Shown here: one piece after another, positions 2,917 to 56,849 of the stretch
Layout of the letters: every line of letters begins with the position of its first letter
How positions within the stretch are numbered: position 1 is the first letter of the stretch
DNA from: a virus
IMG/VR virus record: IMGVR_UViG_3300014835_000095
DNA: 64,000 bases
Reading direction: 5' to 3' (one strand)
The notes under the pieces: generated by a model
The model's input: the letters and a program-made list of their open reading frames with translations, nothing else
Databases searched by the model: none
Told to the model about the DNA's origin: nothing
Program-made: the position numbers and the translations under genes

Positions 2917-3882
2917 TTACACTGCTATAGGTGCATAAATTCTAGGGTGTGATTGATAATTCACCAATTCAAATGATTCCATAGTAAAATCGTCTATGGA
3001 ATCATACTTTTTTGGAATCATTAAAGTTGGTAATGGATATAGTTCTAAATCACGTGCTAATAACTCATGAGCCTGTTCAATGTGGTTTTTATATAAATGT
3101 ACATTGCCCAAAGATATATGCAGTTTATCTGGCGCCATTCCAACCACATTAGCAATCATATGTGTCAGTAGTGCATATCCAGCAGTATTTGCCGGATTCC
3201 CAAGGTAAAAATCGTTACTTCTGATTGTAACCATACAACTCAACCCATACCTAACCACACCTAAAGTATCCATTAGATTATAGTATTCTTCGGAATGACT
3301 TTCTGTGGCATGCATATCAATTGGGCATAAATGAACTCTTTCTTCAAGAGATAATTTTCTAACATTGAACTGCATAAAAGCATGACAAGGAGCCAGAGCC
3401 ATTTTATCCAATTTAACATTTTCTTGTGGAGAAATAGATTCATCTGGTAAATCAGTAACATTCCAAGCCGAAATAATATGTCTACGGCTAAATGGTCTTT
3501 CTTTTAATCCTTGAATAAGATTATTAAATTGATCCTCCCCACCTAAACGATTATATATGTTACCACCCCAGTTGCGCCACTGGTGTCCATAAATTTTAGA
3601 AAGGTTGCCATCTTCTGTACACCATTCTTGCCAAATAGTGTCTTTATCATTACCATTAAATTTCTTCAAATCATTGTTGTTAATAGAACCAGATAACATC
3701 CATAACAATTCTGCTGCTACCATTTTAAAAGATGTGAATTTGCCTGTAAGTAAAGGAAACCCTTCTTTTAAATCATACTCAAGGTGTTTCCCGAATAAAC
3801 TTAATGTTCCTGTACCAGTTCTATCATCACTATCATTACCAATATCTAGTAAGTCTTGTAATAAATCATAATATTGCTTCAA
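2917..3882 (-). CDS. td: Thymidylate synthase
   Basis: DDRTGTGTLSLFG, LAPCH catalytic Cys, RSNDFYLG, HLYKNH. Confidence 0.97.
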   Translation of the reverse strand: MKQYYDLLQDLLDIGNDSDDRTGTGTLSLFGKHLEYDLKEGFPLLTGKFTSFKMVAAELLWMLSGSINNNDLKKFNGNDKDTIWQEWCTEDGNLSKIYGHQWRNWGGNIYNRLGGEDQFNNLIQGLKERPFSRRHIISAWNVTDLPDESISPQENVKLDKMALAPCHAFMQFNVRKLSLEERVHLCPIDMHATESHSEEYYNLMDTLGVVRYGLSCMVTIRSNDFYLGNPANTAGYALLTHMIANVVGMAPDKLHISLGNVHLYKNHIEQAHELLARDLELYPLPTLMIPKKYDSIDDFTMESFELVNYQSHPRIYAPIAV

Positions 3883-7975: not shown

Positions 7976-8455
7976 TTAATAGTCTATAGGCTTCCTTCTA
8001 ATAATTGTAAATTGTGGATCATGTAATATTTCTCCAACTCTCCAATAATTATTAATCCTATGCTCTGGGAGGAATATATCACCATCAACCTCAAAATTCA
8101 TATATGAGATAATTGATTCCGTGATATATGGTATTAACTCCTTATAAATTTGTGCTCCACCTGCAATGTAATACCGATTATCTGGATTTAGGTCAATCTC
8201 AGTTAATAATAATTCTGTTGTTATAGTCCTAAAGCCATCTAACGTATAATCTTGATTTCTTGATAAAACGATGCAATCCCGTCCAGACAAAACCCCAACC
8301 TGTTCTGCAGTAGTGCGACCCATTATGATAGTTCCACCAATTGTTTCCCGCTTAAAATGTTGTAATTCTTCTTTACAATACCAAGGCATTTTATCCAATT
8401 TAGAATTACCGATGACACCGTTTTGTGACACTGCTGCAATCATAATTAAACTCAT
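7976..8455 (-). CDS. frd: Dihydrofolate reductase
   Basis: MIAAVSQNGVIG, MPW, IIMGRTT, IAGGAQIY, VDGDIFLP. Confidence 0.95.
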   Translation of the reverse strand: MSLIMIAAVSQNGVIGNSKLDKMPWYCKEELQHFKRETIGGTIIMGRTTAEQVGVLSGRDCIVLSRNQDYTLDGFRTITTELLLTEIDLNPDNRYYIAGGAQIYKELIPYITESIISYMNFEVDGDIFLPEHRINNYWRVGEILHDPQFTIIRRKPIDY

Positions 8456-8649
8456 AACTCATCCTCTAGTATAGTTTGTGAAATCCTTAAATTAACAACT
8501 TCAACAAAAGATTTTAAATGGTATATCCTATTTGGCCTTTCAGTCGGACTCGCCTGTTCTATTGTTTTTAATAACAATTCATATGTACGTCTTTCAGCTA
8601 ATGTCATTGATATATTCCTATAGAAAATGTTTTTGATAATATACATCAC
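8452..8649 (-). CDS. Hypothetical protein (start probably about 8610)
   Basis: ORF track; overlaps neighbours. Confidence 0.45.
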   Translation of the reverse strand: MMYIIKNIFYRNISMTLAERRTYELLLKTIEQASPTERPNRIYHLKSFVEVVNLRISQTILEDEL

Positions 8650-9154
8650 AAAAAAGAACTTCTAACTGCGAATTGATGCCAGATAATCCTGCATCAAAAA
8701 CACGTTTAGCCCAATCAAAATATTCTATTTTCCTTTCAACAGACCAATCAGGAGGATTATGTAAAATATCCTGCATATTGGCAATTTTATCAGCCAATTT
8801 TAATACTCTAGCATTATCTGATAATAAAGGGGCATGTAAAATTTGCAACTGCTTTCTTTCTTTTTTAGGTAAAGATTTATCATCAGATGCTTCTAAAACT
8901 AGATTAGCAATTTCGCAACCAAATGTGCTTTCTAATTGTGTAACTGTTATATCAGTATCTTCTATTATGTCATGTAGTAATGCAGAACATAAAATAATTT
9001 CATTCTGAATGTTACCAATTTCCGATAATAATTGACAAACTTTTATTGGATGATTTATATAAGGTATTTTAGAACCTTTCCTACGTTGATTTTGGTGTGA
9101 TATAGCAGCATAATTTAATGCTTTTATTAAAATAATCATATATTTAATCTCCAT
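8618..9154 (-). CDS. Stand-alone HD-domain (p)ppGpp hydrolase-like protein (Mesh1/SAH type)
   Basis: PYINHP, ALLHDIIEDT, SDDKSL, KLADKIAN. Confidence 0.85.
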   Translation of the reverse strand: MEIKYMIILIKALNYAAISHQNQRRKGSKIPYINHPIKVCQLLSEIGNIQNEIILCSALLHDIIEDTDITVTQLESTFGCEIANLVLEASDDKSLPKKERKQLQILHAPLLSDNARVLKLADKIANMQDILHNPPDWSVERKIEYFDWAKRVFDAGLSGINSQLEVLFCDVYYQKHFL

Positions 9155-20514: not shown

Positions 20515-20925
20515 TTAAAGATCATTATCAGCACGATTTTCTGAAAAATAAGGATTAAATTTTCCACCAGGATAACGTGATTCTAGTTTACGAACATTCT
20601 CTGCAAATACTTCATTTAGATTAATCCCCAATGCTCTAGTAGCATTAGTTAAATACCATGCAATATCAGAAAGTTCTCTCAGCATATGGTGATGGATTTC
20701 ATCTGAAAATGGTTTACCCTGGAAGATCATTTTCTTGACGATTTCTGTAAATTCTCCAGATTCTGCTGATAATCCCACTGCAGCAGTTAATAACAAAGAC
20801 ACATTACAGCCATCACCCTCCAACTTTCTAATGCGATCAATCATTAATTCAGTTGAGTTTGATTCGTCTGAAGTAACAGCTTCTACAAATTTGGAATATT
20901 CTTTTAAATCAATTTTTTGCATCAT
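20515..20925 (-). CDS. MazG-like NTP pyrophosphohydrolase
   Basis: GLSAESGEFTEIVKK, ELSDIAWY, NVRKLESRYP. Confidence 0.9.
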   Translation of the reverse strand: MMQKIDLKEYSKFVEAVTSDESNSTELMIDRIRKLEGDGCNVSLLLTAAVGLSAESGEFTEIVKKMIFQGKPFSDEIHHHMLRELSDIAWYLTNATRALGINLNEVFAENVRKLESRYPGGKFNPYFSENRADNDL

Positions 20926-21012
20926 TATATATCTCCAAGAGTTAAGTATTCATTATATCTTATATATCTAAATTAGTCAATATACTCCCAAGCTTACATC
21001 CAAGTCGTCAAT

Positions 21013-21630
21013 TTAAGACATGTCACCATCACAGTTTGACCAAAAAAAGTAAGGATTTTCTTTAGTTAAAAAAGATTCTATTGAATGAATAGTTCTATCT
21101 GTTAGATCAACCTCAAACACTGTATTAGGTTCTAAACTTTCAGAATTGGCAAATTTAGTTGAAGATATATCCATTTTGTTGTTGATGAATAAAGGGCATA
21201 TTTCATTGCGAAAAAGGTATAGTTTATTTTTTCTATACAGCACACAAGCAAACGATCCATCTATTACAGAGAGAACAGACCAACCTTCTGTAATTATCCT
21301 TTGAAGCAACCATTCGGTATCCCAAACATTTTTATCAAGGTTGTTTTGTTTAATAATACCATTGTGCCATAACAAAACATCTTCTATCTCCGATGGATGA
21401 ATGTTATTTGTGTTTGTAGTAGGTGCTTGTGCATGACCAATATAGAACATACCATCTATATGGTTATCTAGGTATTCCTTTTCAAACTTTCCCGAATACT
21501 TGTTTAGTTGTTGTAATTCACTATTCGTATTGAAAGAACTTATAGAGGTACTAATTTCACCTCTATAAGAATTCAATTCAAATAGTGCTATAGTAGTTTC
21601 TTTACTAAACGAACCAACGATAGCACACAT
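21013..21630 (-). CDS. Class II glutamine amidotransferase (Gat) adjacent to QueC
   Basis: N-terminal MCAIVG, RG, GHAQAPT, HP, LWHNGII, DTE. Confidence 0.85.
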   Translation of the reverse strand: MCAIVGSFSKETTIALFELNSYRGEISTSISSFNTNSELQQLNKYSGKFEKEYLDNHIDGMFYIGHAQAPTTNTNNIHPSEIEDVLLWHNGIIKQNNLDKNVWDTEWLLQRIITEGWSVLSVIDGSFACVLYRKNKLYLFRNEICPLFINNKMDISSTKFANSESLEPNTVFEVDLTDRTIHSIESFLTKENPYFFWSNCDGDMS

Positions 21631-21632
21631 AG

Positions 21633-22385
21633 TTATTCTTTGATAAGATTAAACCAAGGGATAGCCAATGAATAGGGAATAGGATCTATCTCTTTAACAT
21701 CAGCAAAGTTTTTAATCCTTTCTGCACAAGACGGACATTTTCCACAAGATCTACCTTTGTCGTCAGGATTATAACAAGTTAAAGTAAGTGACATTAAATG
21801 TAATTCTCCGTCCAATTCTCGTAGAACTTCCAATTCCTGTTTTTTACTTAACAAGTTAAATGGAGCAACTAACTTGATTTTAACTTTACGATTTTCAGAA
21901 AAAATAGAATTCATCTTTTCTACGAACCTTGCTGTAGTATCCCAATAACCATATTCATCATGAACTTGTAATCCTGTTACAATAGTATCAACACCTTGTA
22001 CCTCAGCATATGCCGCTGCAATAGACATCAATATCATATTACGATTAGGAACATAGGTAATAGGAGTTGCATCACCAATAACATCTTGGATAGTAGGCAT
22101 ATCAATACTCTTATCTACATTTGCAGAGAAGCCTTGAGAGATATCACCTAGAAAGGAAGCATCTACTATCTTATGGTTCACATGAAGTCTTTTTGTACTC
22201 TCTTTAGCCTTTTCAATTTCAAACACTTGTTTTTGACCGTAGTCAAAAGTGATAGCAGAAACATTCTTAAACCCATACTTTTCAACAGCCAATCTCATTG
22301 CAATAGTAGAGTCCATACCACCAGATAAAACTACAACACAACCTTTAGTTTCTGGTAATAATTCTAAAATTTCATTTATATTCAT
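21633..22385 (-). CDS. queC: 7-cyano-7-deazaguanine synthase
   Basis: VLSGGMDST, FDYGQK, TYVPNRN, TLTCY, CGKCPSCAER. Confidence 0.95.
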   Translation of the reverse strand: MNINEILELLPETKGCVVVLSGGMDSTIAMRLAVEKYGFKNVSAITFDYGQKQVFEIEKAKESTKRLHVNHKIVDASFLGDISQGFSANVDKSIDMPTIQDVIGDATPITYVPNRNMILMSIAAAYAEVQGVDTIVTGLQVHDEYGYWDTTARFVEKMNSIFSENRKVKIKLVAPFNLLSKKQELEVLRELDGELHLMSLTLTCYNPDDKGRSCGKCPSCAERIKNFADVKEIDPIPYSLAIPWFNLIKE

Positions 22386-22404
22386 ATTATATCCTAGTTA
22401 AACT

Positions 22405-23727
22405 TCAAAAAAAACTATCTAAGTTAAAAATCATACTATGGTCACTTTCAATTCGTTCAATTCTATTAGATTTTAGATAATTAATAACTTTACTTCTATG
22501 ACTATTATACCACAAATCTCCAGAATTACAATGTTTTTCTAAATATTTTATTATTTGACATCCACTTATTTTTGAGGATTCATACTTATAATCAACATCA
22601 TCAATACACTTATCAATAACACTAATGAAATTTTGAACAGAATATAAACTAGCACAAAGTCTTACAGCTTGACAACAGTCTATATTATTTTGATCTTTAG
22701 TAGGGGATAGGTATAAACTTTTTGATGTAGACAAATCTTCAGTCACAATATGATTCCATTCATCCCTAGTAACATTCAAATGTTTTTTGATATGTTCTTC
22801 AAATCTATCATACACTTTTCCAAAAATCTCTTTAGATTTTGTACTACGTGATTTCGTACCAAAGTTAAACACTTTCAAATTTTCTTCTATTACTCCACCC
22901 ATTATAAATCTACTAGAATGACTTGTTGAATCATAACTGATAGTGTAATCGGAAAACATTCCGTTTCGTTTTAACATGATGATTGGTAGAAGTCTGCTCA
23001 CAGACCCATAACCTAAGAAATGTAAATGTTTTCCCATTTCAGGAGGAATGTCTAAACAATCAAAAGCATAACATGAATCTAAAACCTCTAAAATACCAAT
23101 ACCAATAGCACTACCGGCAATAGCAAATCCCCCAACCTCTTTATAATTTTCGGGTGAAATTTGACTCTTAATAGCCTCAAAGTAATCAATGAAATCTTGT
23201 TTTGAGTTACCTTGAATTACTATTAATGGTTTTGTATGAAATAATGAAGTATCTCTGTTGTTTTTAAAATATTCAATTTGTTGTTGAACATATTTTCCTG
23301 AAGTGATACCACATTCTATATTCCTAGAAACTTCAAATTTTTTTACAGACATGTCTATTTTACCAGAACCAACCCCAACAATTTTAATAGGAATACTATC
23401 AAAACTCATTGCTATATGTGATGCCTGTGCTTGTACTTTAAAAATATCTTCAGCAATTTTGGGTGTTATAGATTTACCTTGATGCATCATTTGTAACCCA
23501 CCGGAATCCGTATGAATAGATTTTATACTATCACTATAAGGAGTAATCCAGTCAACAGCACTTTTCTCTGTCAAAGCATTATATAACAATCCAAGTTTAT
23601 GGGAATCTCTATGCCCATTAGTTTGGGCTAAAATGTCTTTGGCTAATTCAACTAAAACTGGTCTATCAAACCAAGGTTTAGTTTGTAATTTAGTCATAGA
23701 CACACCGGACATAATATATTCAAACAT
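22405..23727 (-). CDS. dpdA: TGT-fold DNA deoxyguanine transglycosylase (DpdA-like)
   Basis: DSGGLQ, SFDSIP, VIQG, HLHFLG, SYDSTS; embedded in the que cluster. Confidence 0.8.
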   Translation of the reverse strand: MFEYIMSGVSMTKLQTKPWFDRPVLVELAKDILAQTNGHRDSHKLGLLYNALTEKSAVDWITPYSDSIKSIHTDSGGLQMMHQGKSITPKIAEDIFKVQAQASHIAMSFDSIPIKIVGVGSGKIDMSVKKFEVSRNIECGITSGKYVQQQIEYFKNNRDTSLFHTKPLIVIQGNSKQDFIDYFEAIKSQISPENYKEVGGFAIAGSAIGIGILEVLDSCYAFDCLDIPPEMGKHLHFLGYGSVSRLLPIIMLKRNGMFSDYTISYDSTSHSSRFIMGGVIEENLKVFNFGTKSRSTKSKEIFGKVYDRFEEHIKKHLNVTRDEWNHIVTEDLSTSKSLYLSPTKDQNNIDCCQAVRLCASLYSVQNFISVIDKCIDDVDYKYESSKISGCQIIKYLEKHCNSGDLWYNSHRSKVINYLKSNRIERIESDHSMIFNLDSFF

Positions 23728-24413
23728 TAAATACTCCGTACAATAGACATAAATTCAGACCTTACCATTGGATCTGTTTTAAATACACCACCTACCTTAG
23801 AAGTAATAGTCCTTGAACCTACATCTTCAACGCCTCTACTTTTAACACAAAAGTGCTGTGCATCTATTACTACTGCAATATCATCAGTACCTAAAATATA
23901 TTGAAGAGCATGGTAAACTTGTTCAGTTAGTCTTTCTTGTATCTGAGGACGTTTAGAGAAATATTCAACTACTCTATTGATCTTAGATAACCCTAATACT
24001 GTATCACTAGGAATATAGGCAACAGTAGCAAAACCGTCAATCACTACTAAATGATGTTCACAGTTAGATTGAACATTAATGTTCTTCTCTATAACCATTT
24101 CATCATATTGCATCTTGTTATTAACTGTGGTACACTTTGGGAATGCTTCATAGTCTAACCCCCAAAATATTTCCCCTACATACATTTTGGCAACTCGTTT
24201 AGGTGTATCCATTAGACTATCATCAGATAGATCTAAACCCAATGTTTCCATAATATCTCTAAACTTGGTTGAGATAGTATCTATCTTATTTGATCTGGAT
24301 ATGCCATTAGGAACCATAGGTGTCTCGACACCTTTAGATACCAGGTGGTTGTGTATTTCTAACCCTAAAGCAGCGTCGCATTTTATTTTATTGTGACTCA
24401 TTTTACACTCCAT
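23727..24413 (-). CDS. folE: GTP cyclohydrolase I
   Basis: DTPKRVAKM, SNCEHH, LGLSKINR, PQIQERLT, HFCVKSRG. Confidence 0.97.
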   Translation of the reverse strand: MECKMSHNKIKCDAALGLEIHNHLVSKGVETPMVPNGISRSNKIDTISTKFRDIMETLGLDLSDDSLMDTPKRVAKMYVGEIFWGLDYEAFPKCTTVNNKMQYDEMVIEKNINVQSNCEHHLVVIDGFATVAYIPSDTVLGLSKINRVVEYFSKRPQIQERLTEQVYHALQYILGTDDIAVVIDAQHFCVKSRGVEDVGSRTITSKVGGVFKTDPMVRSEFMSIVRSI

Positions 24414-24436
24414 AAACTGTTAATGTTATTTACTGC

Positions 24437-24961
24437 CTACCCAGAATAGCTACAATGGCTCTTTTTAGTTTCCCACAACTCCAACGATTCAACTTTAGCG
24501 ATATCTCCTATTTTAGATTGTGCGTATATTTTTAAATACTTACAGATGTTTTCGCTTGTTGGTACAAAATCAACTAATACAAAACTATTGCGATGCAACG
24601 ACAGATTAGTATCCTCAACATTATACGCTTCATTTAGATTCATAAAGTTCCAAGTTGTATCTGGCACCTTAGATCCTGTAATGAGTTCAAAGTTTGGATC
24701 ATTAATATCAATCATAAACTTATGATCCAGAACATCATCTACAAACTGCTTCATGAAGTTAAGATTCTTAAAATCAGTAACCATTTGGCTATGGTCTAAC
24801 TCGTCTGCTCCCAAAAACACCTTAATGGTATAACTATGACCATGTAGATGTTTACAAGCACATTCCGTAGATAAACTCAAATCCGGTCTATCTAGTTTCT
24901 GAGCCCATACACGATGGCCCATTTCAAAGGAAAACTCTTTATCTATAATCCATTTACTCAT
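24437..24961 (-). CDS. queD: 6-carboxytetrahydropterin synthase
   Basis: FEMGHR, CKHLHGHSY, DHKF, PTSEN, LWETKKS. Confidence 0.93.
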   Translation of the reverse strand: MSKWIIDKEFSFEMGHRVWAQKLDRPDLSLSTECACKHLHGHSYTIKVFLGADELDHSQMVTDFKNLNFMKQFVDDVLDHKFMIDINDPNFELITGSKVPDTTWNFMNLNEAYNVEDTNLSLHRNSFVLVDFVPTSENICKYLKIYAQSKIGDIAKVESLELWETKKSHCSYSG

Positions 24962-25836
24962 TATCTATTCCTATCGTCAGACCATATGTAAGTATGGTTT
25001 CTTGTTGCTATTTTAAATCCTAGTTGCTGATACTTTTCAACAATAGGGGCTATTTGTAACTGATCTTCTCTAGTAGAACCTAAAGGCATTACCCAATATT
25101 CATATTGTGAACTGCTATTATACATCAGTTTCTCTACAAAGTAAAGGAGTTCTGTTTCACATTCCTCAGATGCATCTGCCACAAACTTCAATTGACCCGG
25201 AAAGGCATCTAATATTTTAGTAATATTTTCAACATTAACTGCCAGTAATTCACCACTAACAGTCTTTAGTTTAGGACTAATGGAAAAGAACGGGATTACA
25301 TTCGTGTTATGTATCAACCAACGATAAAAGTCTTCTGTTAGAATTTGGGTACTATTAGTTTCCATAGTAAAATGAACTATTTCATTATCTAGTGCAAACA
25401 TTGAAACCACTTCTTGTATCATCTTTTGATACACCTTCAGAAGAGGTTCACCGCCAGTAAAAACTAAATGGATATCATTGCCAGTTAAAGGGTGTACTAA
25501 AGAACCTGACGGATTATGTTTATCCGTAATCACATTTTTTAAGTTATCATACACTTCTTGTGAAGTATAAGATTGATGTTGATTCTTAAAAGAAGGATTC
25601 CATGAGTATTCTGTATCGCACGGGAATCCTAAACACTTAAGATTACAACCAAAGGATCTTACCCATATACTAGGTGTTCCAGCATAATGCCCCTCCCCTT
25701 GTATGCTTAGAAAGCCGACCTCAGAAAGTCTATATCTAATATCACTGTTTTTTATCATTTCATTTTTCCCATCGTTATTAACACATCCACTTTCAGTAAT
25801 TTGCTTAACTTCTTTTGCAATGAGATTATCCATCAC
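24961..25836 (-). CDS. queE: 7-carboxy-7-deazaguanine synthase (radical SAM)
   Basis: SIQGEG, GCNLKCLGFPCDTEYSW, FTGGEPL, ETN, SISPKL. Confidence 0.93.
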   Translation of the reverse strand: MMDNLIAKEVKQITESGCVNNDGKNEMIKNSDIRYRLSEVGFLSIQGEGHYAGTPSIWVRSFGCNLKCLGFPCDTEYSWNPSFKNQHQSYTSQEVYDNLKNVITDKHNPSGSLVHPLTGNDIHLVFTGGEPLLKVYQKMIQEVVSMFALDNEIVHFTMETNSTQILTEDFYRWLIHNTNVIPFFSISPKLKTVSGELLAVNVENITKILDAFPGQLKFVADASEECETELLYFVEKLMYNSSSQYEYWVMPLGSTREDQLQIAPIVEKYQQLGFKIATRNHTYIWSDDRNR

Positions 25837-25863
25837 CGATTTAATTTATGAGTTATTATAACA

Positions 25864-26325
25864 TCACTTATGGTTGGTGTCAACAAAGAATTCCCACGGA
25901 TAAACGATCCAAACAGGATCTGTTTGCTTGTCTATTTTCCAATGATAGAAGTCTGTCTTTATGATACTACCCACATTATATGTGAGAGTAGCAATTTTAA
26001 TGTCAGATGTTGATATGTGCCAGTTATGTAAAATCCAATGTAAAGTCTCACCTGTGTCGTTTATCTCGTCCATAATAAGGATATTCTTGCCGTATTTAGC
26101 ATGTATATCATCAATGTCTAAAGTTTCTTGGATAGTGCCATCTCGTAGTTGAACTGTGACAATCTTACATGGTATGTTGGATATCTTACTAAACAAAGTA
26201 GCTGGTATTGAACCCCCATTAGCAATGCCTATAATAACATCCGGTTTCCATTCTGTGTTATTAATTTGTTCGTGTATGTCTTTTACAGACATTTCTATAT
26301 CTGTCCAACTATAATATTTTTTCAT
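25864..26325 (-). CDS. Type I purine phosphoribosyltransferase
   Basis: IIGIANGG, ILIMDEINDTGETL PRPP motif, WIVYPWE. Confidence 0.88.
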   Translation of the reverse strand: MKKYYSWTDIEMSVKDIHEQINNTEWKPDVIIGIANGGSIPATLFSKISNIPCKIVTVQLRDGTIQETLDIDDIHAKYGKNILIMDEINDTGETLHWILHNWHISTSDIKIATLTYNVGSIIKTDFYHWKIDKQTDPVWIVYPWEFFVDTNHK

Positions 26326-26541
26326 TAGAATTTAAACTCCGATGTTTTTTTGTTTGACTTTATAAATACAATTACATATTTAAATGATGTTGTTTTAAAC
26401 TTTTTTCAAGATATTTTATATTAACCACTGGGTATAGGACAATTTCAATCTAGTAGATTTTTTAATAGTTACATAATCTTTTTTGCTCAAATAGTTGTCA
26501 TTAAATCAACATTATATATTAATTCTTAACTATAGTCAAGT

Positions 26542-27599: not shown

Positions 27600-27758
27600 G
27601 AGTTATCCACTTAACCCACTACAGATATATTATAAGCCTGTTTGGAGCAAAAGTCAACCCCAAAAAGTAAATAAATATTATCATTTAATCAGGAGCAATA
27701 ATGTTATCATTCAAACAATTTTTAAAAGGAGTCTACCTGGTTGAAGCTACAGCTAAAC
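27600..27758. repeat. Long direct repeat, copy 1 (divergent promoter cassette plus gene start)
   Basis: About 160 bp nearly identical to about 52853-53011. Confidence 0.9.
27628..27656 (-). promoter_or_regulatory. Near-consensus sigma70 promoter driving the primase/que cluster
   Basis: TTGACT-17-TATAAT; identical copy at 52882-52910. Confidence 0.85.
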
Positions 27759-28771
27759 ATTTTCCCTTTCTAGATGCCGATAATGAATATCACAAAAAGT
27801 TGATTGATGCTTATAATATGGGACATTCCGCCAATGATCTAGCGGTGCCGAGGAATCCTAGTCAGATAAAATCTATAGAGCAACTTGAAGATGTAGTTCA
27901 GCCACATCTGAAAAAGATTAATCAGAAAGAACAAGAAGATAAAGATGATAAAGCATCCTTTGATCGTGGGGATGCAACTTTAGTCCACCATGATCCAGAA
28001 TCTAAACTCAAGATTTATCGTGTAGACAGTCAACCCGGATCTGTTGCAGCATTAAAAGATATTGGTAAAACTCCACCTTGGTGTACTGCAAAGCGATATG
28101 CCTTAGAAGATGTAGTGAGAAAATATGCTCCAGGTGGTAATGCTTTTATTATTCATAACCCCAAAGCAAAGGAGCCAAATATGAGAGTTATGGGGATTTA
28201 TGGCAGAGAGCATGGTAATACTAGACAGGATATACAAAATCATTATATTGATGATGCAAAATGGAATCAGACACGCAGAGAATTGGGTCTTGATAAAATA
28301 AAATATTTACAGGGTTCTATTGGTAGTATTCCATTGAGTAATGAAAATAGAGAGAAATATGAGAATGAATTATCCAATAGCATTAAAAATAATACTGCTA
28401 AATCTGAAGATATAATACATGCCATTCACAACGATTATCTGTCAAATAATCTTAGAGACAATTTACTTTCCAATACAAATACAAGTCATGTTATATTGCA
28501 TAATCTTGCCGTACATAATGAAGATTCCGAAGTACATAGCGATATAATAAACCACCCAAATGTAAATACTAAAGCATTAAATGCAATTGCAAATAATAGT
28601 TATGATTCAGAAGTGCATAAGATGTTATTAAACCACCCAAAGATAAATCATGTTACTATAAATAATATTGCTAAAAACACAGATGATCCGGAAATATTTA
28701 ATGCAATCTCAAATCACCCTAAAGCTAGCGAATATGCAAAAAAAGATGCTCTTAGGAGTTTGAATAGATAG
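27701..28771 (+). CDS. Putative internal virion protein, WCT domain plus LRV/HEAT-like repeats (paralog 1)
   Basis: MLSFKQFLKGVYLVE; PWCTAKR; about 26-aa repeats with HP; AATAAATA at 27670. Confidence 0.8.
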   Translation: MLSFKQFLKGVYLVEATAKHFPFLDADNEYHKKLIDAYNMGHSANDLAVPRNPSQIKSIEQLEDVVQPHLKKINQKEQEDKDDKASFDRGDATLVHHDPESKLKIYRVDSQPGSVAALKDIGKTPPWCTAKRYALEDVVRKYAPGGNAFIIHNPKAKEPNMRVMGIYGREHGNTRQDIQNHYIDDAKWNQTRRELGLDKIKYLQGSIGSIPLSNENREKYENELSNSIKNNTAKSEDIIHAIHNDYLSNNLRDNLLSNTNTSHVILHNLAVHNEDSEVHSDIINHPNVNTKALNAIANNSYDSEVHKMLLNHPKINHVTINNIAKNTDDPEIFNAISNHPKASEYAKKDALRSLNR

Positions 28772-34683: not shown

Positions 34684-35280
34684 CTAAAATACAAAATCTG
34701 AAGTATCACGCTTTTCCTTCTTATTAGAAGTATAAGACATAGGTGGTGCTTTCTGTGGATCTGCAATACCAACCTGTGAACTATTTTCTGTATCAAATAC
34801 TCTCATTTTGTTCCTATCTATACCCACAACAAATTTATTATAATAATTAACATCGGCATATCTGTTTTTCAACTGTTTTATCATGATCTGTCCGAGTTCT
34901 TCTAACTCTGGGGTAGATATTAATCCTAACATTAAGTCGCAAGTTTGGGGGAGACCTATTGAATTTTTAGTTAGAATATCGTTACAATAAAAAAGGTTAT
35001 CACCTGTTACCGAAATATCAATAGTTTGCAAAGTACCCACATCTTCTATAGACATAATTTCATCATTATAATCTATAAGCTTATCAGACAATTCTGATTT
35101 TAATTGACGTTCTTCTTCTATAGTAAATAACAAATCTGTCAGTTCAAATAATTCTATTTCATTGGTTTGATGGATATAACCTTTTTCTTTTAAATAAATT
35201 GCTTTTTTAAAACACTTTTCATACAAAGATGGATCTTGCTCATAATTTGGTTGATTCATATTGTTCCTATGATTTAGCAT
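34684..35280 (-). CDS. 41: gp41 helicase C-fragment with split-intein C half
   Basis: ...NLFYCNDILTKN|SIGLPQTCD...KQLKNRY; likely start M8 (35259) behind AGGA. Confidence 0.92.
   Translation of the reverse strand: MLNHRNNMNQPNYEQDPSLYEKCFKKAIYLKEKGYIHQTNEIELFELTDLLFTIEEERQLKSELSDKLIDYNDEIMSIEDVGTLQTIDISVTGDNLFYCNDILTKNSIGLPQTCDLMLGLISTPELEELGQIMIKQLKNRYADVNYYNKFVVGIDRNKMRVFDTENSSQVGIADPQKAPPMSYTSNKKEKRDTSDFVF
34963..35259 (-). mobile_element. Split intein C half with extended N-terminus (gp41)
   Basis: DEIMSIEDVG..TIDISV...FYCNDILTKN; Ser at +1. Confidence 0.85.
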
Positions 35281-37058
35281 GATTTTAATAAATCCCCAAC
35301 GGACAAATCCATATTGACAGATTTTCTACCTGTATTAGATGGAAATACATGATCTTTAGATACAATAATAGTTTTACCACTTTTTAAAGTGATCTTTACA
35401 CATTCTTTAGGTTTTTCATGATGCACAAACATGACAGTTTTAAACACATCATTGGCGGTAATCTGATCCCCCGGAACAATATCACCAATTCTTTTGAGAG
35501 TACCATCTAATAATTTAACTTGTTCTCCCACCCAAATACATTCAGATGTGCTAGTCAGATCTAGATCTGACGAATTAATTGATTCACGATTTGCCTGGGT
35601 AGCGGAAACTATAGGTACATTATTTTCAACCGCCAATCCTCTCAATTCTTCTGCTATAGATTTGATATAAGAGTAACTATTGACACCTGCCCCAAATTTC
35701 ATTCTTTGAGATGAACAGATATTAAGGTAATCAATATAAATAACATCAGGTATAAAATCTTTCTTAATTTTCAACTCTTCTATTAGTGCTCTAAAATGCC
35801 CAGCATGAGCTCCTGATGTTGGGTATTCTTTAACAATCAAAGTTCCGGTGGTTTTCTTTTTCAATTTTTGAATGCGACTATTAAAAATGTCATATTCAAC
35901 TGTTTTAAGTTCATGCATACCCAAATTTAATAAATTAGCATCTATACGCTCTGCAATGCGCTCCTCGCTCATCTCCATAGTTATATAAAGCACATTTTTA
36001 TTATTAGAAATATTAGCAGAAGCCATATGGCACATAACTAAACTTTTTCCAACACCAGTATTATGGGAGCTGACACTATTGGTATAATATCTGTGATTGT
36101 CATGATCCACTTGAATATCAACAATAGGAATTAGTTTTCCCGTTTTTCTAACATTACCATGTATTAATATTCCACCTTTAGTTAAATATAGTTGATTTGG
36201 GATATTTATTAAATCTTTAGCATATTGCCAACCTATATCGGTTTCAAATAAGTGATTTTCATTTACTCGGACTTCTACACCAGATTCTAAAATTAAAACA
36301 TATTCATTCCATTCACCCTTATCCACAAATAATAATATAGGCACAAAACCATCAGGTGAATCTACTGTAATTCTATTACCTGATTCTAACAATTCTTTTA
36401 TTTGACCAATACGGATTGTTATTACATGATTTTCATCATTTAATTTTACATATATATTAGTTTCTGGATGCACACATCCCGCTAAAAGTACATTGAGTGA
36501 TTTTTTAGACAACCCACCATTAGTGATTTTATTTAACAGTTCAATATCAAAAGCTAGCTTTTCTTCAGTTTTTCTATAAAATTCAAATCGGTCATTTGCA
36601 TCTGCAATGTAATCGTGACCAACTGAAGAATCAAAAGTGATACCCAATGCCTCTGATAAAATGCTGGGGATAGCTTCTGGCGTATATTGTTTATCTTTAC
36701 CCTCAATGATACCGATGGATGCCAAAATTGCTATATATACAGCTCGTTCTTTTACAAATACTTCAGTTTCACGCAATATCCAATTTTCATTAATATCGGT
36801 CTTATCTAACACAGCAATGAGCTTTTCTGCTTCAATCAATTCATTAGAATTAATATCTCTACGATTGGATACTTGTATTGATAGTATTTCTTTAGTTGCT
36901 GGCTTGTTAAATTCTGCAAAAAACTTTAGTAGTTCTTCTGAAACTATAGCTTCAACTCTATCTGCAAAGTATTCTTTTTTAAGAAATGGTATAACTTTTC
37001 TAGAATACTCTTCGTTATGAATTAAATTAGATAATATTGTTGTTTCTATTCTAGACAT
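35274..37058 (-). CDS. 41: gp41 helicase N-fragment with mini-intein and split-intein N half
   Basis: LLAG|intein|TGVGKS; YIDYLNI; SATQANR; ends in CIWVGEQ...GDLLKSC. Confidence 0.95.
   Translation of the reverse strand: MSRIETTILSNLIHNEEYSRKVIPFLKKEYFADRVEAIVSEELLKFFAEFNKPATKEILSIQVSNRRDINSNELIEAEKLIAVLDKTDINENWILRETEVFVKERAVYIAILASIGIIEGKDKQYTPEAIPSILSEALGITFDSSVGHDYIADANDRFEFYRKTEEKLAFDIELLNKITNGGLSKKSLNVLLAGCVHPETNIYVKLNDENHVITIRIGQIKELLESGNRITVDSPDGFVPILLFVDKGEWNEYVLILESGVEVRVNENHLFETDIGWQYAKDLINIPNQLYLTKGGILIHGNVRKTGKLIPIVDIQVDHDNHRYYTNSVSSHNTGVGKSLVMCHMASANISNNKNVLYITMEMSEERIAERIDANLLNLGMHELKTVEYDIFNSRIQKLKKKTTGTLIVKEYPTSGAHAGHFRALIEELKIKKDFIPDVIYIDYLNICSSQRMKFGAGVNSYSYIKSIAEELRGLAVENNVPIVSATQANRESINSSDLDLTSTSECIWVGEQVKLLDGTLKRIGDIVPGDQITANDVFKTVMFVHHEKPKECVKITLKSGKTIIVSKDHVFPSNTGRKSVNMDLSVGDLLKSC
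35277..35540 (-). mobile_element. Split intein N half, 88 aa (gp41)
   Basis: TSTSE|CIWVGEQV; block B SKDHVFP. Confidence 0.9.
36060..36476 (-). mobile_element. Contiguous mini-intein, 139 aa, in gp41 Walker A
   Basis: AG|CVHPET...NENHLF...SVSSHN|TGVGK; no endonuclease domain. Confidence 0.93.
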
Positions 37059-38537: not shown

Positions 38538-39470
38538 TTAAAAAAACGAATCTAAATTTGATATTTCTTCTAGATTCCAGCCAATTGGCTCAATAATTCC
38601 TCCTAGCGCATCCAAGAACACTTTTTCAAATTGAAAATCCCAGTCTACATATTTGTGCAATCCAAATTCTGGTGGTAGAACGGATGGAAAAGCAATAACA
38701 TTTTCTTTAATTGTATTGGGTTTCTTTAAATATATGAATTTAATCTTATCGCCAGAATTGATCGGTTGATACTTATTAGTAAGACATAGCTCTGTTATTA
38801 GATGGTTATATAATAGAGCACCTCTAACGTGTATGGGGCACCCTTTGGAGTAAATTGTAGCATTGCTCTGGTATTTCTCCATACCGTTAACACCGCGTGG
38901 AAATGCAATATCTTCAACTGGTATTTTTTTAAATTCTTCTCTAGCATCATCAATAAATGCAATTAGATCTGGATTCGTCTTATCAAAAATAACATCAATA
39001 GAAGATTTCAATTTATCTCTAATAACTGCGGGGGTGGATGATTTTACAATTTCCAACCCCATGATTTTATACTTGGGTTGGTCATATTGCACACCTTCAG
39101 AATTGTGGACTCTTAGTATGTATCGCTTTTTCACTGCTGGAAACAGTCCTTTGGAGCATAAGACCTCTCGCTTCATAGACATAAGCTGTTGATATGATTG
39201 CAGATAATCTGCCAATTCCTCATAAGACTTTTTGATGAATGGTGTTAATATTTTTTCACTAAAGGTATCCATAAAGGCAATCTTTTCATCCACAGACTTA
39301 TCTTTTTGTGTAGATTCTATTAAATTCTCTAATGTCAAATACACAGAATTGTGAACACATATATCATTGCCAAAGAAATTGTGAGTATCTTCTACCTCAA
39401 TATCATAAACAAACTGTTCTTGGATGCCCAAATCTGTAACCTCAAATACATCACTAAATTCTAAATTCAT
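38538..39470 (-). CDS. 43: gp43 DNA polymerase fragment 3 (41-aa IntC plus palm/thumb)
   Basis: YDIEV..HNFFGNDICVHN|SVYL; KKRYIL; KIMGLE; CPIHVRGAL. Confidence 0.95.
   Translation of the reverse strand: MNLEFSDVFEVTDLGIQEQFVYDIEVEDTHNFFGNDICVHNSVYLTLENLIESTQKDKSVDEKIAFMDTFSEKILTPFIKKSYEELADYLQSYQQLMSMKREVLCSKGLFPAVKKRYILRVHNSEGVQYDQPKYKIMGLEIVKSSTPAVIRDKLKSSIDVIFDKTNPDLIAFIDDAREEFKKIPVEDIAFPRGVNGMEKYQSNATIYSKGCPIHVRGALLYNHLITELCLTNKYQPINSGDKIKFIYLKKPNTIKENVIAFPSVLPPEFGLHKYVDWDFQFEKVFLDALGGIIEPIGWNLEEISNLDSFF
39348..39470 (-). mobile_element. Split intein C half (gp43)
   Basis: Blocks F/G ending VHN; Ser at +1. Confidence 0.9.
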
Positions 39471-39527
39471 ATAATATCCTATATAGGTATAGCTACTTTT
39501 GATTTTAAGTCAAAAGTAGCTATAAAA

Positions 39528-39713
39528 TTATTTCATCTCATTAAGAACTAAATCCATTCCCACAATTCTAGCAAAAACAAAAGCATCCTTTCTAGAATTA
39601 AAACTGGCACTAACAATCTCTTCACCAATTAGATTGACAATATGGTATTGGAGTTTTTGATTAACCAGACACATTGATAAAATACCAGATGGTACTGCAT
39701 TAAAATTATACAT
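39528..39713 (-). CDS. Hypothetical protein between intein halves
   Basis: ORF track. Confidence 0.45.
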   Translation of the reverse strand: MYNFNAVPSGILSMCLVNQKLQYHIVNLIGEEIVSASFNSRKDAFVFARIVGMDLVLNEMK

Positions 39714-39727
39714 CTTAATCTCTCTAT

Positions 39728-39958
39728 TCAGATTAACTTATGCTTTGAGCCATCTTGACAAATAACTGATATATGATTTGTACTTGGTCCAGACATATTG
39801 ATAATCGTGACATTTGACGTACCACCACCATTTTCACATTCTTTGTTAATAGCTTGTGAAATGACATTTACTTCATACGGATTGAGCGATAATACTTGAA
39901 TAAGAGATGTTATAATTACTATAGATGTTAATGCAAATGCTAATAATATTGTTTTCAT
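39728..39958 (-). CDS. Small exported/membrane protein between intein halves
   Basis: Signal-like N-terminus; two Cys. Confidence 0.6.
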   Translation of the reverse strand: MKTILLAFALTSIVIITSLIQVLSLNPYEVNVISQAINKECENGGGTSNVTIINMSGPSTNHISVICQDGSKHKLI

Positions 39959-40434
39959 TTAGTGCCCATTTTGAGTAAGGTATTGATAGAAACCATAAAC
40001 ACATTATTGGTTAATTCTGGATCCATTCTTACACCTTCAGCGATTTTAATAGATAAAATAATAGATGTTTTATAAGAAGGGTTATACAAATTTACCGCCA
40101 AATTGAATTCTTTATTGTACATAATTTTAGAAAAATGACTATAAACAGATTTGATGGGTAAATTATCATAAGGTTTAAAACCAACCCGACTTAATTTTGT
40201 GTTAATATCTGTGGTATCTTCCAAAAAGATATTCTGTTGGAATTGCAATACCTCTAATTCCAACATTTTAATAATCACATCACCATGATCTAAATTTCTC
40301 ATAGTCCAAATTTTAATAAATCTATTTTTTTCAAAATGGTTATTAATAGAAGTAAATATTCTCAAAGGGGACATATTGTTGACTTGTGTTGAAATTATTT
40401 TTTTAGTCATTGCATTGATAGAAAATGTATTCAT
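39955..40434 (-). CDS. Hypothetical protein between intein halves
   Basis: ORF track; behind a promoter at about 40471-40499. Confidence 0.6.
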   Translation of the reverse strand: MNTFSINAMTKKIISTQVNNMSPLRIFTSINNHFEKNRFIKIWTMRNLDHGDVIIKMLELEVLQFQQNIFLEDTTDINTKLSRVGFKPYDNLPIKSVYSHFSKIMYNKEFNLAVNLYNPSYKTSIILSIKIAEGVRMDPELTNNVFMVSINTLLKMGTK

Positions 40435-40499
40435 GTTTATTGTCTCTATGTGATTAAAGTAAATAGAATTGTATTGTCATCCTCAGCTCAAGTCAATAA

Positions 40500-40877
40500 T
40501 TAAATGTCTAATCCCCTGACGGCACGAACAAAGTACGCAATAGTCTTATTGTGGCCGCTCTGGGCGCCATTGCGGAAATTCTGGTACCAAGCATTGGTAG
40601 CAGTAAACTCCGTACTAGACCAGTAATTGGCCGCAGTGAATTCCTTTCTAATTTCATTATTCAGGTATGCTTCCGAAAGAATATTTCTTGGTGGTAGTTC
40701 ACCTCCGACAGTTTGACACCATTCAATTGCAGCATCCCAATCCACCATTTCTGGTGCTTCTGGCCCCAATATCCACCGGTATCCATTTAATTCGCAGATA
40801 ACTGGAGCAGTAGCCCAATCATATGATTGATTTGTTAAAGCATCAATTTGTTGTTGTATTTGTTCACATTTAGTCAT
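40500..40877 (-). CDS. DUF1566/CLec-fold protein, candidate DGR target (paralog 2)
   Basis: YWSSTEF..AW..F..G..K..VRAV; high identity to 9614..9970. Confidence 0.85.
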   Translation of the reverse strand: MTKCEQIQQQIDALTNQSYDWATAPVICELNGYRWILGPEAPEMVDWDAAIEWCQTVGGELPPRNILSEAYLNNEIRKEFTAANYWSSTEFTATNAWYQNFRNGAQSGHNKTIAYFVRAVRGLDI

Positions 40878-40950
40878 AATATTTCTCTTTAAGAGTTAAG
40901 GTAAGCATCAATTGTACTACCATCCTTGGCTAAGGTCAACTATTTTAACA

Positions 40951-41640
40951 TCATTGTGGAAAATTCTTACTATCAACTCCCACTAGATCATTTATTGATA
41001 TGAGACAATGTATTTTGGAATCTAATAATCCAGGCTTAATTGATTCTATCTCACATGTAAGTTTATTCTGCACTATAACAGAGTGATCTTCTGTTACAAT
41101 AACCTCTTTACCCTGGGTTTTTATTGAAAACATTCGCTTATTGACTTTATGTTTCATCACATATTTAATATTAGAATCTACCAATTCACTATCGGCATTT
41201 ACAGAATTTGTTTTACCGTGAGATAATTTAACCATATTATCATGATCATTCTTTATAAAGAAGTCAGGCATTGAATCATAATAATCAGATATAGAAATTT
41301 TATTTCCATTTACTGTAATAATAGTGCTACCGATGACTGAATCGGTATCTGAAGCAATCACGTAATCTTTATTTTTAGTTTTGAGTGCTAGATTAAGATA
41401 ATTATTTAATTTATTAGCAATCCACCTAATCGCTAATTGACCTGTTGTAGTGATAGATTCAGCCATCCTTAGATCATAATATCTAAAATGTGTGCTGCCC
41501 AAAATGCCATAGCAAGAATTAAGTGCGATTTTTTTCCCCATTTGAAGATTGTCGAGTCTAGAAATCTCTTTTACTAAAAACACCTTGTGTTTAAGTAAAT
41601 CATCATCGGACATCATTTGTATATCAAGACCCATAATCAT
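40951..41640 (-). CDS. 43: gp43 DNA polymerase fragment 2 (motif B plus IntN)
   Basis: KIALNSCYG, ITTTGQ, ASDTD|SVIGST. Confidence 0.95.
   Translation of the reverse strand: MIMGLDIQMMSDDDLLKHKVFLVKEISRLDNLQMGKKIALNSCYGILGSTHFRYYDLRMAESITTTGQLAIRWIANKLNNYLNLALKTKNKDYVIASDTDSVIGSTIITVNGNKISISDYYDSMPDFFIKNDHDNMVKLSHGKTNSVNADSELVDSNIKYVMKHKVNKRMFSIKTQGKEVIVTEDHSVIVQNKLTCEIESIKPGLLDSKIHCLISINDLVGVDSKNFPQ
40954..41340 (-). mobile_element. Split intein N half, 129 aa, Ser1 (gp43)
   Basis: SVIGSTII; block B VTEDHSV; inserted in the DTD|S motif. Confidence 0.9.
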
Positions 41641-43262
41641 AATCCTCGTTTTTTAATTTCATTCTTAACTAGCTCGTATTCTTGTTCACATTTTAGCATC
41701 TGCTTTTTATCAACTGTACGACTTACATATAATGTCTCCATCAATTCTGGAAGAAACCCTTGTTTGTCTTTTCTGTAGCACCAACCGTTTGCAGTAATTG
41801 ATAGATCTGTTTTAGGTAAAGGATCTTTATTTAATAACGTATCTAAAGTGATATTTAACTTAGTTGTTGAAATAGTTTCGGGACTTATGTTGCATTGTCT
41901 GATTAAAGATGGGTAGAGTGATGCCAAATCAAACGATGCTACCCATTGATGCATACCTGCCAGGGGTTCTTTTACATATGCACCTATGAATTGCTCACCT
42001 TTCTGTTGATGTTTGCTATTAGGGATAACAATATGTTTTTTAAGTAAATTATTATATATGATAGAATCCCACAATTTAACTGGACTTAGAGCATCATTAT
42101 AATTCAATTTCCCCATGTATGCCATCGTCAAATGTAAATTTATCAGCTTTAATTTATCGTCAAGTTTAGTAATAAGTTCAACATCCATTCTATTATATAA
42201 AGTATATTCATTCCATGCTGATTGTCTTAGTGATTTATCTAACTCCTCATATTCTCCCATTCGTACAGAATCTAAATATGGGATATCTTTTTTAAGTTGT
42301 GTTCTCCTAAATCCGAGTTTATTGTGGTCTGTTGGGTTCTCGCCAAGATCTAATACATCATAAACACCTGTACAATATTCTCTAAAAGTAGTTCCGTGGG
42401 TGTGTTCTAATTTGGATTCCCCTAATTCTATAGCACCAATATTGCCTAAGCTATAACTTTCTCTATTTTTATAAGTATATTTTTTATAAAGGACTAGGTA
42501 ATCTAATGAACTAATGCCTATAATTTTATACATCTGTTCTTCTTTGCCTTGGACGTTGATATTCTGCTCATCAACAAAACCCCAAGGAGACAATCTCTTA
42601 TAAGCATCTCCTAACACATGTTTGATTCTATTTACAATGTATGGAATATCAAATGTGTCACTATTATATCCAACAACAATATCCGGATAATCATATTGCC
42701 AAAATAGTAAAAATTTATTTAATAACTCTTTTTCATCTACACATTGCACATAATCTTCTTGATATTTTCCTGTATAAGGTCTAGATCCAAATGTTGTTAT
42801 TTTATTAGATGTTTTATCTTGTAGAGTAATAAGAACAATTTCATCCCTAGCAAATTTGGGATCAGGAAAAACACCAGATTCTGATACTAAAAGTTCTATG
42901 TCTAATGTTAGGATTTTAATCAAATCAGAATCATATAATACATCGTCTTTGTAGTTTTCAGAAATATATTGTAGGGCATAATTAGATTGTCCAAAGATAT
43001 TGAAATCTTGAACACCTTCATAGGTTTTAATAAAAGCTTTTGCATCATCAATTCCCCCAGGTTTGATTGGATATGCTGGTATATCATCTAAGGTCCTCCA
43101 TGGAGTTTCTGTATTTGGAGTTTTTTGGTTAGTTGTAAATAGTGTGGGCTTAAATGGTATTTTAGATCTTTGCGGTTGACCGTTTACTATTTCACGCACT
43201 AGGAGGTTATCCCCCCGTCGAATTACCGATGTGTAGAAATTCTTTGACATTGTATTCTCCAA
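41637..43262 (-). CDS. 43: gp43 DNA polymerase fragment 1 (N-terminal, 3'-5' exonuclease, motif A)
   Basis: LDIE, YNSDTFDIPY, YNRMDV, SFDLASLYPS; ends in the fingers helix. Confidence 0.95.
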   Translation of the reverse strand: MENTMSKNFYTSVIRRGDNLLVREIVNGQPQRSKIPFKPTLFTTNQKTPNTETPWRTLDDIPAYPIKPGGIDDAKAFIKTYEGVQDFNIFGQSNYALQYISENYKDDVLYDSDLIKILTLDIELLVSESGVFPDPKFARDEIVLITLQDKTSNKITTFGSRPYTGKYQEDYVQCVDEKELLNKFLLFWQYDYPDIVVGYNSDTFDIPYIVNRIKHVLGDAYKRLSPWGFVDEQNINVQGKEEQMYKIIGISSLDYLVLYKKYTYKNRESYSLGNIGAIELGESKLEHTHGTTFREYCTGVYDVLDLGENPTDHNKLGFRRTQLKKDIPYLDSVRMGEYEELDKSLRQSAWNEYTLYNRMDVELITKLDDKLKLINLHLTMAYMGKLNYNDALSPVKLWDSIIYNNLLKKHIVIPNSKHQQKGEQFIGAYVKEPLAGMHQWVASFDLASLYPSLIRQCNISPETISTTKLNITLDTLLNKDPLPKTDLSITANGWCYRKDKQGFLPELMETLYVSRTVDKKQMLKCEQEYELVKNEIKKRGL

Positions 43263-52852: not shown

Positions 52853-53011
52853 AACTAATCTACTTAACCCAGTACAGATATATTATAAGCCTGTTTGGAG
52901 CAAAAGTCAACCCAAAAAAGCAAATAAATATTATCATTTAATCAGGAGCAATAATGTTATCATTCAAACAATTTTTAAAAGGTGTCTACCTGGTTGAAGC
53001 TACAGCTAGAC
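52853..53011. repeat. Long direct repeat, copy 2 (divergent promoter cassette)
   Basis: Nearly identical to about 27600-27758. Confidence 0.9.
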
Positions 53012-55712: not shown

Positions 55713-55786
55713 TGGCAGCCTCTAGTAGTTACGCTCTACTCCGTTCAGATTCAAATTCTGACATGCTACTAATACATCAAGAGGCA
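55713..55786 (-). ncRNA. Atypical tRNA-like cloverleaf, anticodon UUG (Gln-like)
   Basis: Hand-folded 74-nt cloverleaf with all four stems, G73-CCA, non-canonical D and T loops; TATAAATA at 55809-55816. Confidence 0.7.
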
Positions 55787-55851: not shown

Positions 55852-56849
55852 TTAAGTGGTTGCACTTATATTAACAGTTTTTTGGTAAATAACTGTAATG
55901 TCGGAATTCTTTTTAGATGATAATGTTTGATTTGATTGGCGTTTACTACTATTTACTGAAAAGGTATTAACCTTATCAAATCTCAATTCAGTCTGATACT
56001 GTAATACATCATCATTCATATCATTTTTACCCACGTTCCAGCAAGATACTCCATTTTCAGTTAATAATATATTGCTTTTCACTATAATATCCTTTAAGAA
56101 ATAATCAATCCATTCTCTATAAGAAGAATGTGTTGATGTGGATTGAGAATTTTCATTACAATATATTTCAAGGTCAAAATATGGGGGACTTGTTAATACT
56201 AAATCCACCTTAGGTAAATTATACTTATCCATATTCATTGCATCATCTTGTATGATAGTTATTCTACCCTCAATGTCTAAGAATGATGCTAATTGTTTAA
56301 GATTATTATACGTCACAGAATTAGGTTCAAATCCTATATAATGAGCTTTTGCTGCAATAGCATCCTACCACCCCAACCGCAGCATGGGTCTAATACTATT
56401 TTGGGTTGATAAAAATCGCAGATAGATTTTGTCATTTGAGGTCTATACATTGTATTTTTAGTGAGACCGCAACAAAAGAATACTCCGAGCTTTAGTTCTG
56501 AAAGATAAGGTGTAGAATGACTTTTCCATCTTAATATCTTTATCAGATTATCTTTAGCCCAAAGATTATTGAAACTTTGTCCTTTAGTATTAGTTATATC
56601 ATAGAAATTGTGGAAAAAATGTTCACATAATTTCATACCTATTCTAGATGTAGAATTGATATTGGTTATCGCATTCTTCCACCTATTCAATTTGATCCAG
56701 TCATCTATCAATTGAGCATTGGTATATTCTGGATATATTGAAACTTTAGAAATAGCTTCGGCTAATTCTTCAATAATAGATTCAAAAAGTTCATCTGACA
56801 AATTTCTGGTTGAATGTCTAACATTTAAGTAATGATCAAGATTAACCAT
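55852..56849 (-). pseudogene. Frameshifted amino-methyltransferase (two ORFs)
   Basis: Motif I LDPCCGWGGRM and motif IV TSPPY in different frames; shifted frame continues IAAKAHYIGFEPN at about 56358. Confidence 0.8.

Follow-up and report, generated by a model that had tools for sequence, protein, structure and literature searches.

By which route, and with which base, might an uncultured phage modify its DNA with 7-deazaguanines, and what part would a small phosphoribosyltransferase (PRTase) play in it? The question is raised by eight genes at positions 20515-26325, all on the minus strand, of the IMG/VR virus record IMGVR_UViG_3300014835_000095, of which a stretch of 64,000 nucleotides, here called the window, was analysed. 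The genes belong to an AT-rich T4-like phage seen in freshwater and lake metagenomes and are flanked by the gp61 primase upstream and by NrdA/NrdB downstream. In a second assembly (L018; L numbers denote compared loci) the gene calls are identical, with 99.5% identity over 9 kb. From gene content and comparison with characterized phages we consider it probable that the cluster is a DpdA2-type cassette which modifies DNA with 7-deazaguanines after replication. An initial annotation had named all eight genes, and family searches together with DpdA2 homology bear these assignments out:

25864..26325, minus strand: small 6-oxopurine-type (Gpt/HGXPRT-like) PRTase, 153 aa (PF00156, E 1e-14)
24961..25836, minus strand: QueE, predicted radical S-adenosylmethionine enzyme making 7-carboxy-7-deazaguanine (CDG) (phrog_2076, E 1e-38; QueE TIGRFAMs below cut-off)
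24437..24961, minus strand: QueD, predicted synthase of 6-carboxytetrahydropterin (CPH4), with CxxxHGH motif (PF01242)
23727..24413, minus strand: FolE, predicted GTP cyclohydrolase I (TIGR00063 and NF006824, both above cut-off)
22405..23727, minus strand: predicted DpdA2 DNA-guanine transglycosylase, 440 aa (homology to DpdA2 of phage nt-1, TGT fold, invariant aspartates)
21633..22385, minus strand: QueC, predicted canonical stand-alone synthase of 7-cyano-7-deazaguanine (preQ0) (TIGR00364, 166.7 bits against a cut-off of 150.3)
21013..21630, minus strand: predicted stand-alone class II (N-terminal nucleophile, Ntn) glutamine amidotransferase, Gat (GATase_7, E 1e-4; phrog_12378, E 1e-42)
20515..20925, minus strand: predicted MazG pyrophosphohydrolase of the cyanophage type (phrog_229, E 1e-45)

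The probable DpdA2 system

The assignment of the cassette depends on the 440-aa protein, which had no meaningful Pfam match, only an unnamed PHROG match, and no match in a sequence search of the PDB. It shares 35% identity (E 4e-49 to 5e-48) with YP_008125322 of phage nt-1, the founding DpdA2 protein (PMC6884629), and gave no significant match to the DpdA proteins of phages 9g, VpKK5, immuto or CP220. Its AlphaFold model has a mean predicted local distance difference test (pLDDT) score of 93.7, and the top Foldseek matches are TGT and DpdA structures (7ui4). Three residues that are invariant in 67 homologues, D74, D110 and D266, would be the catalytic aspartates. We identify the protein, on homology and modelled fold, as a DpdA2 transglycosylase. 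Relatives of the whole locus were recovered by an alignment-based scan; a single-sequence locus scan had found none.

The preQ0 genes FolE, QueD, QueE and QueC form a complete set within the cluster, and with a DpdA2 next to them the proposal of a 7-deazaguanine DNA system holds. QueC retains the PP-loop and the zinc cysteines (invariant columns). QueE has the spacing Cx3Cx4C, as have 12 related sequences. It is 77-87% identical to relatives of 258-259 aa and carries an N-terminal extension without counterpart in them; its true start may be 25833 or 25758 instead of 25836. The candidate reading of QueD as a DpdL was rejected, with no match to the DpdL profile.

In the pathway that we propose, FolE, QueD and QueE would convert GTP to CDG, as is established for these families, and QueC would turn CDG into preQ0 with ammonia that the separate Gat would draw from glutamine. 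DpdA2 would then exchange guanine in the replicated phage DNA for preQ0. There is precedent for this step: the DpdA2 proteins of nt-1 and VH7D alone put 7-deazaguanines into plasmid DNA of E. coli (PMC10516641), that of nt-1 inserting preQ0. [quoted passage not shown] Its purpose would be defence against restriction, known from other deazaguanine phages. Avoidance of palindromes was tried as a proxy for modification density and rejected: phages that are fully substituted or have DpdA3, such as immuto (0.75) and L012 (0.69), show as much depletion as the window (0.78).

Phage nt-1 offers the closest known parallel. Its DNA contains dPreQ0 > dADG > dG+ (Hutinet 2019, PMC6884629; Cui 2023, PMC10516641), with 232 dPreQ0 and 44 dG+ per million nucleotides. 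Besides DpdA2, its QueC and FolE are 49% and 61% identical to those of the window, the order dpdA2-queC-gat is shared with an orthologous split Gat (VPFG_00173, 34%, unannotated), and its locus is likewise free of QueF. The two differ in that the window has no ArcS2 homologue, that it has a PRTase, and that queE is in its operon. As far as the features can be compared, the cassette conforms to the nt-1 DpdA2 system. That core system is already published; of two accessory genes, the PRTase and the stand-alone Gat, we found no discussion in the literature searched on deazaguanine phages, DpdA2 and DpdA3.

The final base and the roles of Gat and MazG

We take dPreQ0 to be the probable main base. 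Two other outcomes have to be weighed against it, and the first of them concerns Gat. As the initial annotation stated, Gat and QueC are separate genes, distinct open reading frames (ORFs) 2 nt apart. Gat has the N-terminal cysteine nucleophile and the HNG oxyanion motif, and C2, R23, H89-N90-G91 and D104 are invariant in 39 sequences. It is 34-38% identical to proteins of nt-1, phi-Grn1 and pf16, and its homologues in isolates come from 49 Vibrio phage records and pf16, where the gene follows queC and is unannotated. In counts that were drawn from pattern-selected best matches and not dereplicated, as are all locus counts given here, Gat adjoins QueC in 58 of 59 loci (61 viral Gat loci were surveyed), and the fused Gat-QueC form occurs in none of the related loci. 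A complex prediction for QueC and Gat (score 0.01) points neither way.

The split pair had been taken as a sign of dG+, the base of Enterobacteria phage 9g, which would be the main base here if the pair acted as the Gat-QueC fusion of that phage does. The two systems do share a class II Gat domain, a QueC and a DpdA, the glutaminase residues of our Gat are intact, its gene nearly always adjoins queC, no QueF in the window would divert preQ0, and nt-1 does contain some dG+. In 9g, however, the two domains are fused in reversed order and belong to other subfamilies: our Gat family profile barely matches the fused protein (E 0.026), and QueC, of the canonical type, is 49-51% identical to the split type (49% to nt-1 and phi-Grn1) as opposed to 28.5% to 9g Gat-QueC, which moreover works with a DpdA1. 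By these comparisons the window Gat and QueC are not of the 9g type, and Gat is orthologous to the post-queC gene of nt-1 and phi-Grn1. The split pair is present in phi-Grn1, phi-ST2 and nt-1. The DNA of phi-Grn1 and phi-ST2 contains dPreQ1 and mdPreQ1 (the deoxynucleoside of preQ1, 7-aminomethyl-7-deazaguanine, and its methylated form) and 0 dG+; nt-1 is mostly modified with dPreQ0, and its minor dG+ can be accounted for by ArcS2, which together with DpdA2 yields dG+ in E. coli. The pair as a sign of dG+ is thus not borne out, and that dG+ is the main base here seems quite unlikely. Because phi-Grn1 and phi-ST2 carry the orthologous pair and have no dG+, Gat probably supplies QueC with ammonia from glutamine.

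The second outcome is dPreQ1 or a derivative, made through a QueF that is encoded beyond the window or supplied by the host. QueF accompanies the split Gat in 52 of the 61 viral Gat loci, the VH7D DpdA2 inserts host preQ1, and the window leaves most of the genome unseen. On the other hand, every QueF found was within its cluster, and the cassettes closest to ours (L016, L330) have none in the cluster either. The cassettes of phi-Grn1, phi-ST2 and VH7D (Schizotequatrovirus) and of Pseudomonas phage pf16 share the order FolE-DpdA2-QueC-Gat and an orthologous split Gat, but have QueF between dpdA2 and queC and no match to the PRTase. They also differ in DpdA2 loop 200-210, where Asp stands at position 205 in the three of three QueF-linked DpdA2 proteins, a small sample, and the window has Gly205, as do nt-1 and most QueC-only DpdA2 proteins. 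We regard a base of the dPreQ1 type as quite unlikely, to much the same degree as dG+ or as any base other than these and dPreQ0.

Homologues of QueF, ArcS2, DpdL, DpdN, DpdA3 and nucleoside monophosphate (NMP) kinases were all absent from the 64-kb window. Since the QueF profile cross-matched FolE, only best labels were counted. Several points speak against dPreQ0 all the same: the ArcS2 and kinase profiles were built from one or a few sequences, a QueF, ArcS2 or kinase could be encoded elsewhere in the genome, beyond these 64 kb, the host may supply preQ1, and in phi-Grn1 QueF could use up preQ0 and so mask a dG+-forming activity of Gat-QueC. The combination of DpdA2, QueC, a free Gat and a PRTase without QueF or ArcS2 is otherwise found only in a few metagenomic cassettes. 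As such it offers a clean test case for whether the split form of Gat produces dG+ or does no more than supply QueC.

MazG had been counted as part of the module, and it is here that the question of a pre-replicative route arises. According to this proposal the PRTase would turn preQ0 into its nucleotide; from this, host kinases together with NrdAB of the phage would produce a dNTP, MazG would lower dGTP, and the polymerase would incorporate the modified base alongside the action of DpdA2. PRTase, MazG and NrdAB are indeed neighbours, and a related PRTase is present in all three fully substituted groups (phiST, immuto and Campylobacter CPt10/CP20). The MazG of cyanophage S-PM2 prefers dGTP and dCTP (PMC6850273) and is 48.5% identical to ours over its full length; it stands beside gp41 there and beside the cassette here. 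The window MazG belongs to a type found in 616 phage records, cyanophages for the most part, and has a promoter-like site of its own. In a cassette with 94% DNA identity the match extends no further than 21043, close to where gat ends, and an unrelated 245-aa gene takes the place of mazG; no mazG follows gat in L330/L331 and L016 (DpdA2 and QueC of L016 are 67% and 84% identical to ours). The MazG profile, built from two sequences and rechecked with phmmer, would not detect pyrophosphohydrolases of other families. One of these follows gat in pf16, in the position of mazG; this is a caveat to seeing MazG as a bystander and a point for the dual route. Common among cyanophages, preceded by a separate promoter-like site and missing from the nearest cassettes, MazG appears to be a neighbour that the cassette does not conserve.

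The dual route would require a kinase and a means of removing dGTP that go along with the cluster. DpdA3 clusters typically have such a kinase (46 of 61 Gat loci, and also CP220), which is found in 0 of 62 DpdA2 loci and not in the window. Near-identical PRTases, the nearest to ours, sit in clusters without QueC, measured DpdA2 phages have a low level of modification, and DpdA2 by itself modifies DNA in E. coli. A preQ0 PRTase that feeds replication, as the initial annotation had suggested, is therefore not upheld, and we consider a dual route in this phage very unlikely. Such a route would fit DpdA3 phages better. DpdA3 has an NMP-kinase-like gene as its neighbour in L327:4862-7355, L186 and further Gat loci, and CP220 also has an HD phosphohydrolase; this neighbourhood suggests that fully substituted phages may carry out chemistry at the nucleotide level.

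The substrate of the phosphoribosyltransferase

With a post-replicative DpdA2 cassette as the preferred reading, the PRTase still has to be given a role. It is a recurrent partner of deazaguanine clusters and not a stray gene, as had been anticipated: it is present in 39 of 62 DpdA2 loci, and FolE, QueD or QueE is nearby in 73 of 80 PRTase-anchored viral loci (QueC in 0 of 80). It accompanies DpdA1 (there fused to FolE), DpdA2 and DpdA3 systems, and isolates that carry it include BUCT-ZZ01 (DpdA2) as well as the fully substituted phages. Fusions of the PRTase to the N-terminus of FolE, with intact motifs, directly precede dpdA1 (L323:5998-6900, L324:4989-5876 and L325:4971-5864) in the siphoviruses VpKK5 and MMDA13 and in NP1, Quinobequin-P09 and others, where they are annotated only as GTP cyclohydrolase.

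The protein has a type I PRTase fold with an intact motif for phosphoribosyl pyrophosphate (PRPP), DEINDTG, and an intact hood, WIVYPWE. Its best PDB relatives by both sequence and fold are 1vdm and 4z1o (Z about 18). With the small 6-oxopurine PRTases (1vdm of P. horikoshii, 4z1o, the HGXPRT of S. solfataricus, and Gpt of E. coli and Yersinia) it shares the fold (Z 16-18), the PRPP motif and the hood tryptophan; it differs from them in Asn117 for Lys, in Asn36 for the usual Arg, in its deazaguanine context and in a score of 35 bits against the Gpt equivalog NF006613, whose cut-off is 138. D90 is invariant, and we take it to be the counterpart of the N7-facing Asp of HGPRT.

Which base, then, would it act on? 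The PRTases of L014 and L012 are 85% and 78% identical to that of the window (QueE 87% and 77%, FolE 85% and 82%), and neither cluster contains QueC. Downstream, L014 and L332 have a distantly related DpdA2 along with DpdL and a gene resembling glycosyltransferases, and L012 has DpdL and DpdA3. The near-identical PRTases of such QueC-less clusters form one starred four-member clade with ours in a quick tree whose backbone is mostly open and from which only this clade was used. Because the PRTase is kept at 78-85% identity while the downstream module changes and QueC is missing, its substrate should be one common to all variants, guanine or CDG and not preQ0; preQ0 is unlikely on these comparisons. 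Relatives this close, attached to different downstream chemistries, bring the role of a widespread family within reach.

Between the two remaining candidates we favour guanine, as somewhat more likely than not: the PRTase would convert the guanine released by DpdA2 and PRPP to GMP. Salvage of this kind had been one option of the initial annotation and is now the favoured one, supported by the 6-oxopurine PRTase fold, the invariant D90 and the Lys at 117 that is kept in most DpdA2-linked members (29 of 38). Each exchange would free a guanine able to re-enter the reaction; the PRTase would take away this competitor of an exchange that is reversible, and would replenish the GTP on which FolE draws.

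Some observations count against guanine. Asn117 stands where the solved 6-oxopurine PRTases have Lys in the base site, and Asn is found at this position in most groups of the family. Vibrio and Pseudomonas, the hosts of the phages with PRTase-FolE fusions, have guanine salvage of their own. Of cellular proteins, the PRTases of marine Bacteroidota are closest to ours, and in 40 of 80 loci (L244:6001-7056 and 39 other bacterial loci among L243-L322) they are paired in a tight two-gene unit with YhhQ, a transporter of preQ0/preQ1. Finally, TubE of tubercidin biosynthesis sets a precedent that a PRTase can be CDG-specific (PMC6112128); it is likewise clustered with FolE/QueD/QueE-type genes, and it differs in serving an antibiotic pathway.

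These observations lead to an alternative in which the DpdA2 system is the same and the substrate of the PRTase is a 7-deazaguanine base that all variants have, most plausibly CDG. The enzyme would make the nucleotide of that base or break it down; the nucleotide might be an intermediate or a store, or its turnover might clean the pool. This is possible but doubtful. For it speak the company of FolE, QueD and QueE without QueC, the fusion to FolE, the loss of Lys at 117 in most groups and the bacterial unit with YhhQ: among five Bacteroidota genomes with the unit, QueA was found in 5/5 and TGT in 3/5, and QueC and QueF were not detected in these incomplete genomes. No canonical Hpt above cut-off was found in them either, so the PRTase there may be a plain guanine salvage enzyme. 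The invariant D90 and the Lys kept in DpdA2 clusters also argue against CDG, and DpdA takes free bases, so a CDG nucleotide would be without a clear consumer here.

More generally, the small PRTase that recurs in deazaguanine clusters of phages might as a whole be a dedicated 7-deazaguanine (CDG-type) phosphoribosyltransferase, which we think rather unlikely. If it were, it would mark an undescribed nucleotide-level step common to phage DNA modification and bacterial salvage through YhhQ. In DpdA3 phages such an enzyme would open a pre-replicative route, against the published view that these modifications are all post-replicative, and would reopen the question of how fully substituted phage genomes arise; in the window phage it would be a supplement to DpdA2.

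Promoter-like sites and further observations

Exact matches to TTGAC[AT]-N17-TATAAT number nine in the window, where 0.18 would be expected. Three promoter-like sites concern the cluster:

26511..26539, minus strand: putative sigma-70-like site TTGACT-N17-TATAAT upstream of the PRTase gene, one of the nine exact sites
25855..25883, minus strand: putative promoter, perfect TTGACA-N17-TATAAT (12/12 consensus), overlapping the 3' end of the PRTase gene
20952..20980, minus strand: promoter-like site upstream of mazG, which may thus be a separate unit

The second of these is the probable promoter of queE-queD-folE-dpdA2-queC-gat. Since the sites stand before the PRTase gene, before queE and before mazG, their positions suggest three units: PRTase, queE to gat, and mazG. 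Elsewhere, a 29-nt promoter sequence is identical at 27629-27657 and 52882-52910 of the window, adjoining two plus-strand ORFs (27701-28771 and 52954-54174) that break the run of minus-strand genes.

Other genes were noted in the compared loci. QueC-less DpdA2 clusters (L164:7593-8666; L014:13734-15151) nearly always contain DpdL with an HRH motif and a protein of about 354 aa that has no Pfam or PHROG match and a consensus resembling GT-B glycosyltransferases; it is possible, judging from these genes, that such clusters make an undescribed base. A family of about 490 aa in many T4-like contigs (L133:4261-5718) looks like a further DpdA-like subfamily, with a profile match to DpdA2 of 97.7% and a DSGGFQ motif.

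Elsewhere in the window, three separate ORFs, with small ones in between, match the gp43 polymerase (38538-43262), and the gp41 helicase (34684-37058) is divided over two, of which the first contains a large insertion; an intein, an intron or a split gene are candidates. A tRNA-Gln(TTG) lies at 55713-55786 and a tRNA-Met(CAT) at 57727-57801. The region 55852-57416 holds a 154-aa ORF with a partial match to N6/N4 DNA methylases, preceded by two unannotated ORFs. A metal-dependent phosphohydrolase (8618-9154), DHFR (7976-8455) and thymidylate synthase (2917-3882) are encoded 11-20 kb from the cluster.

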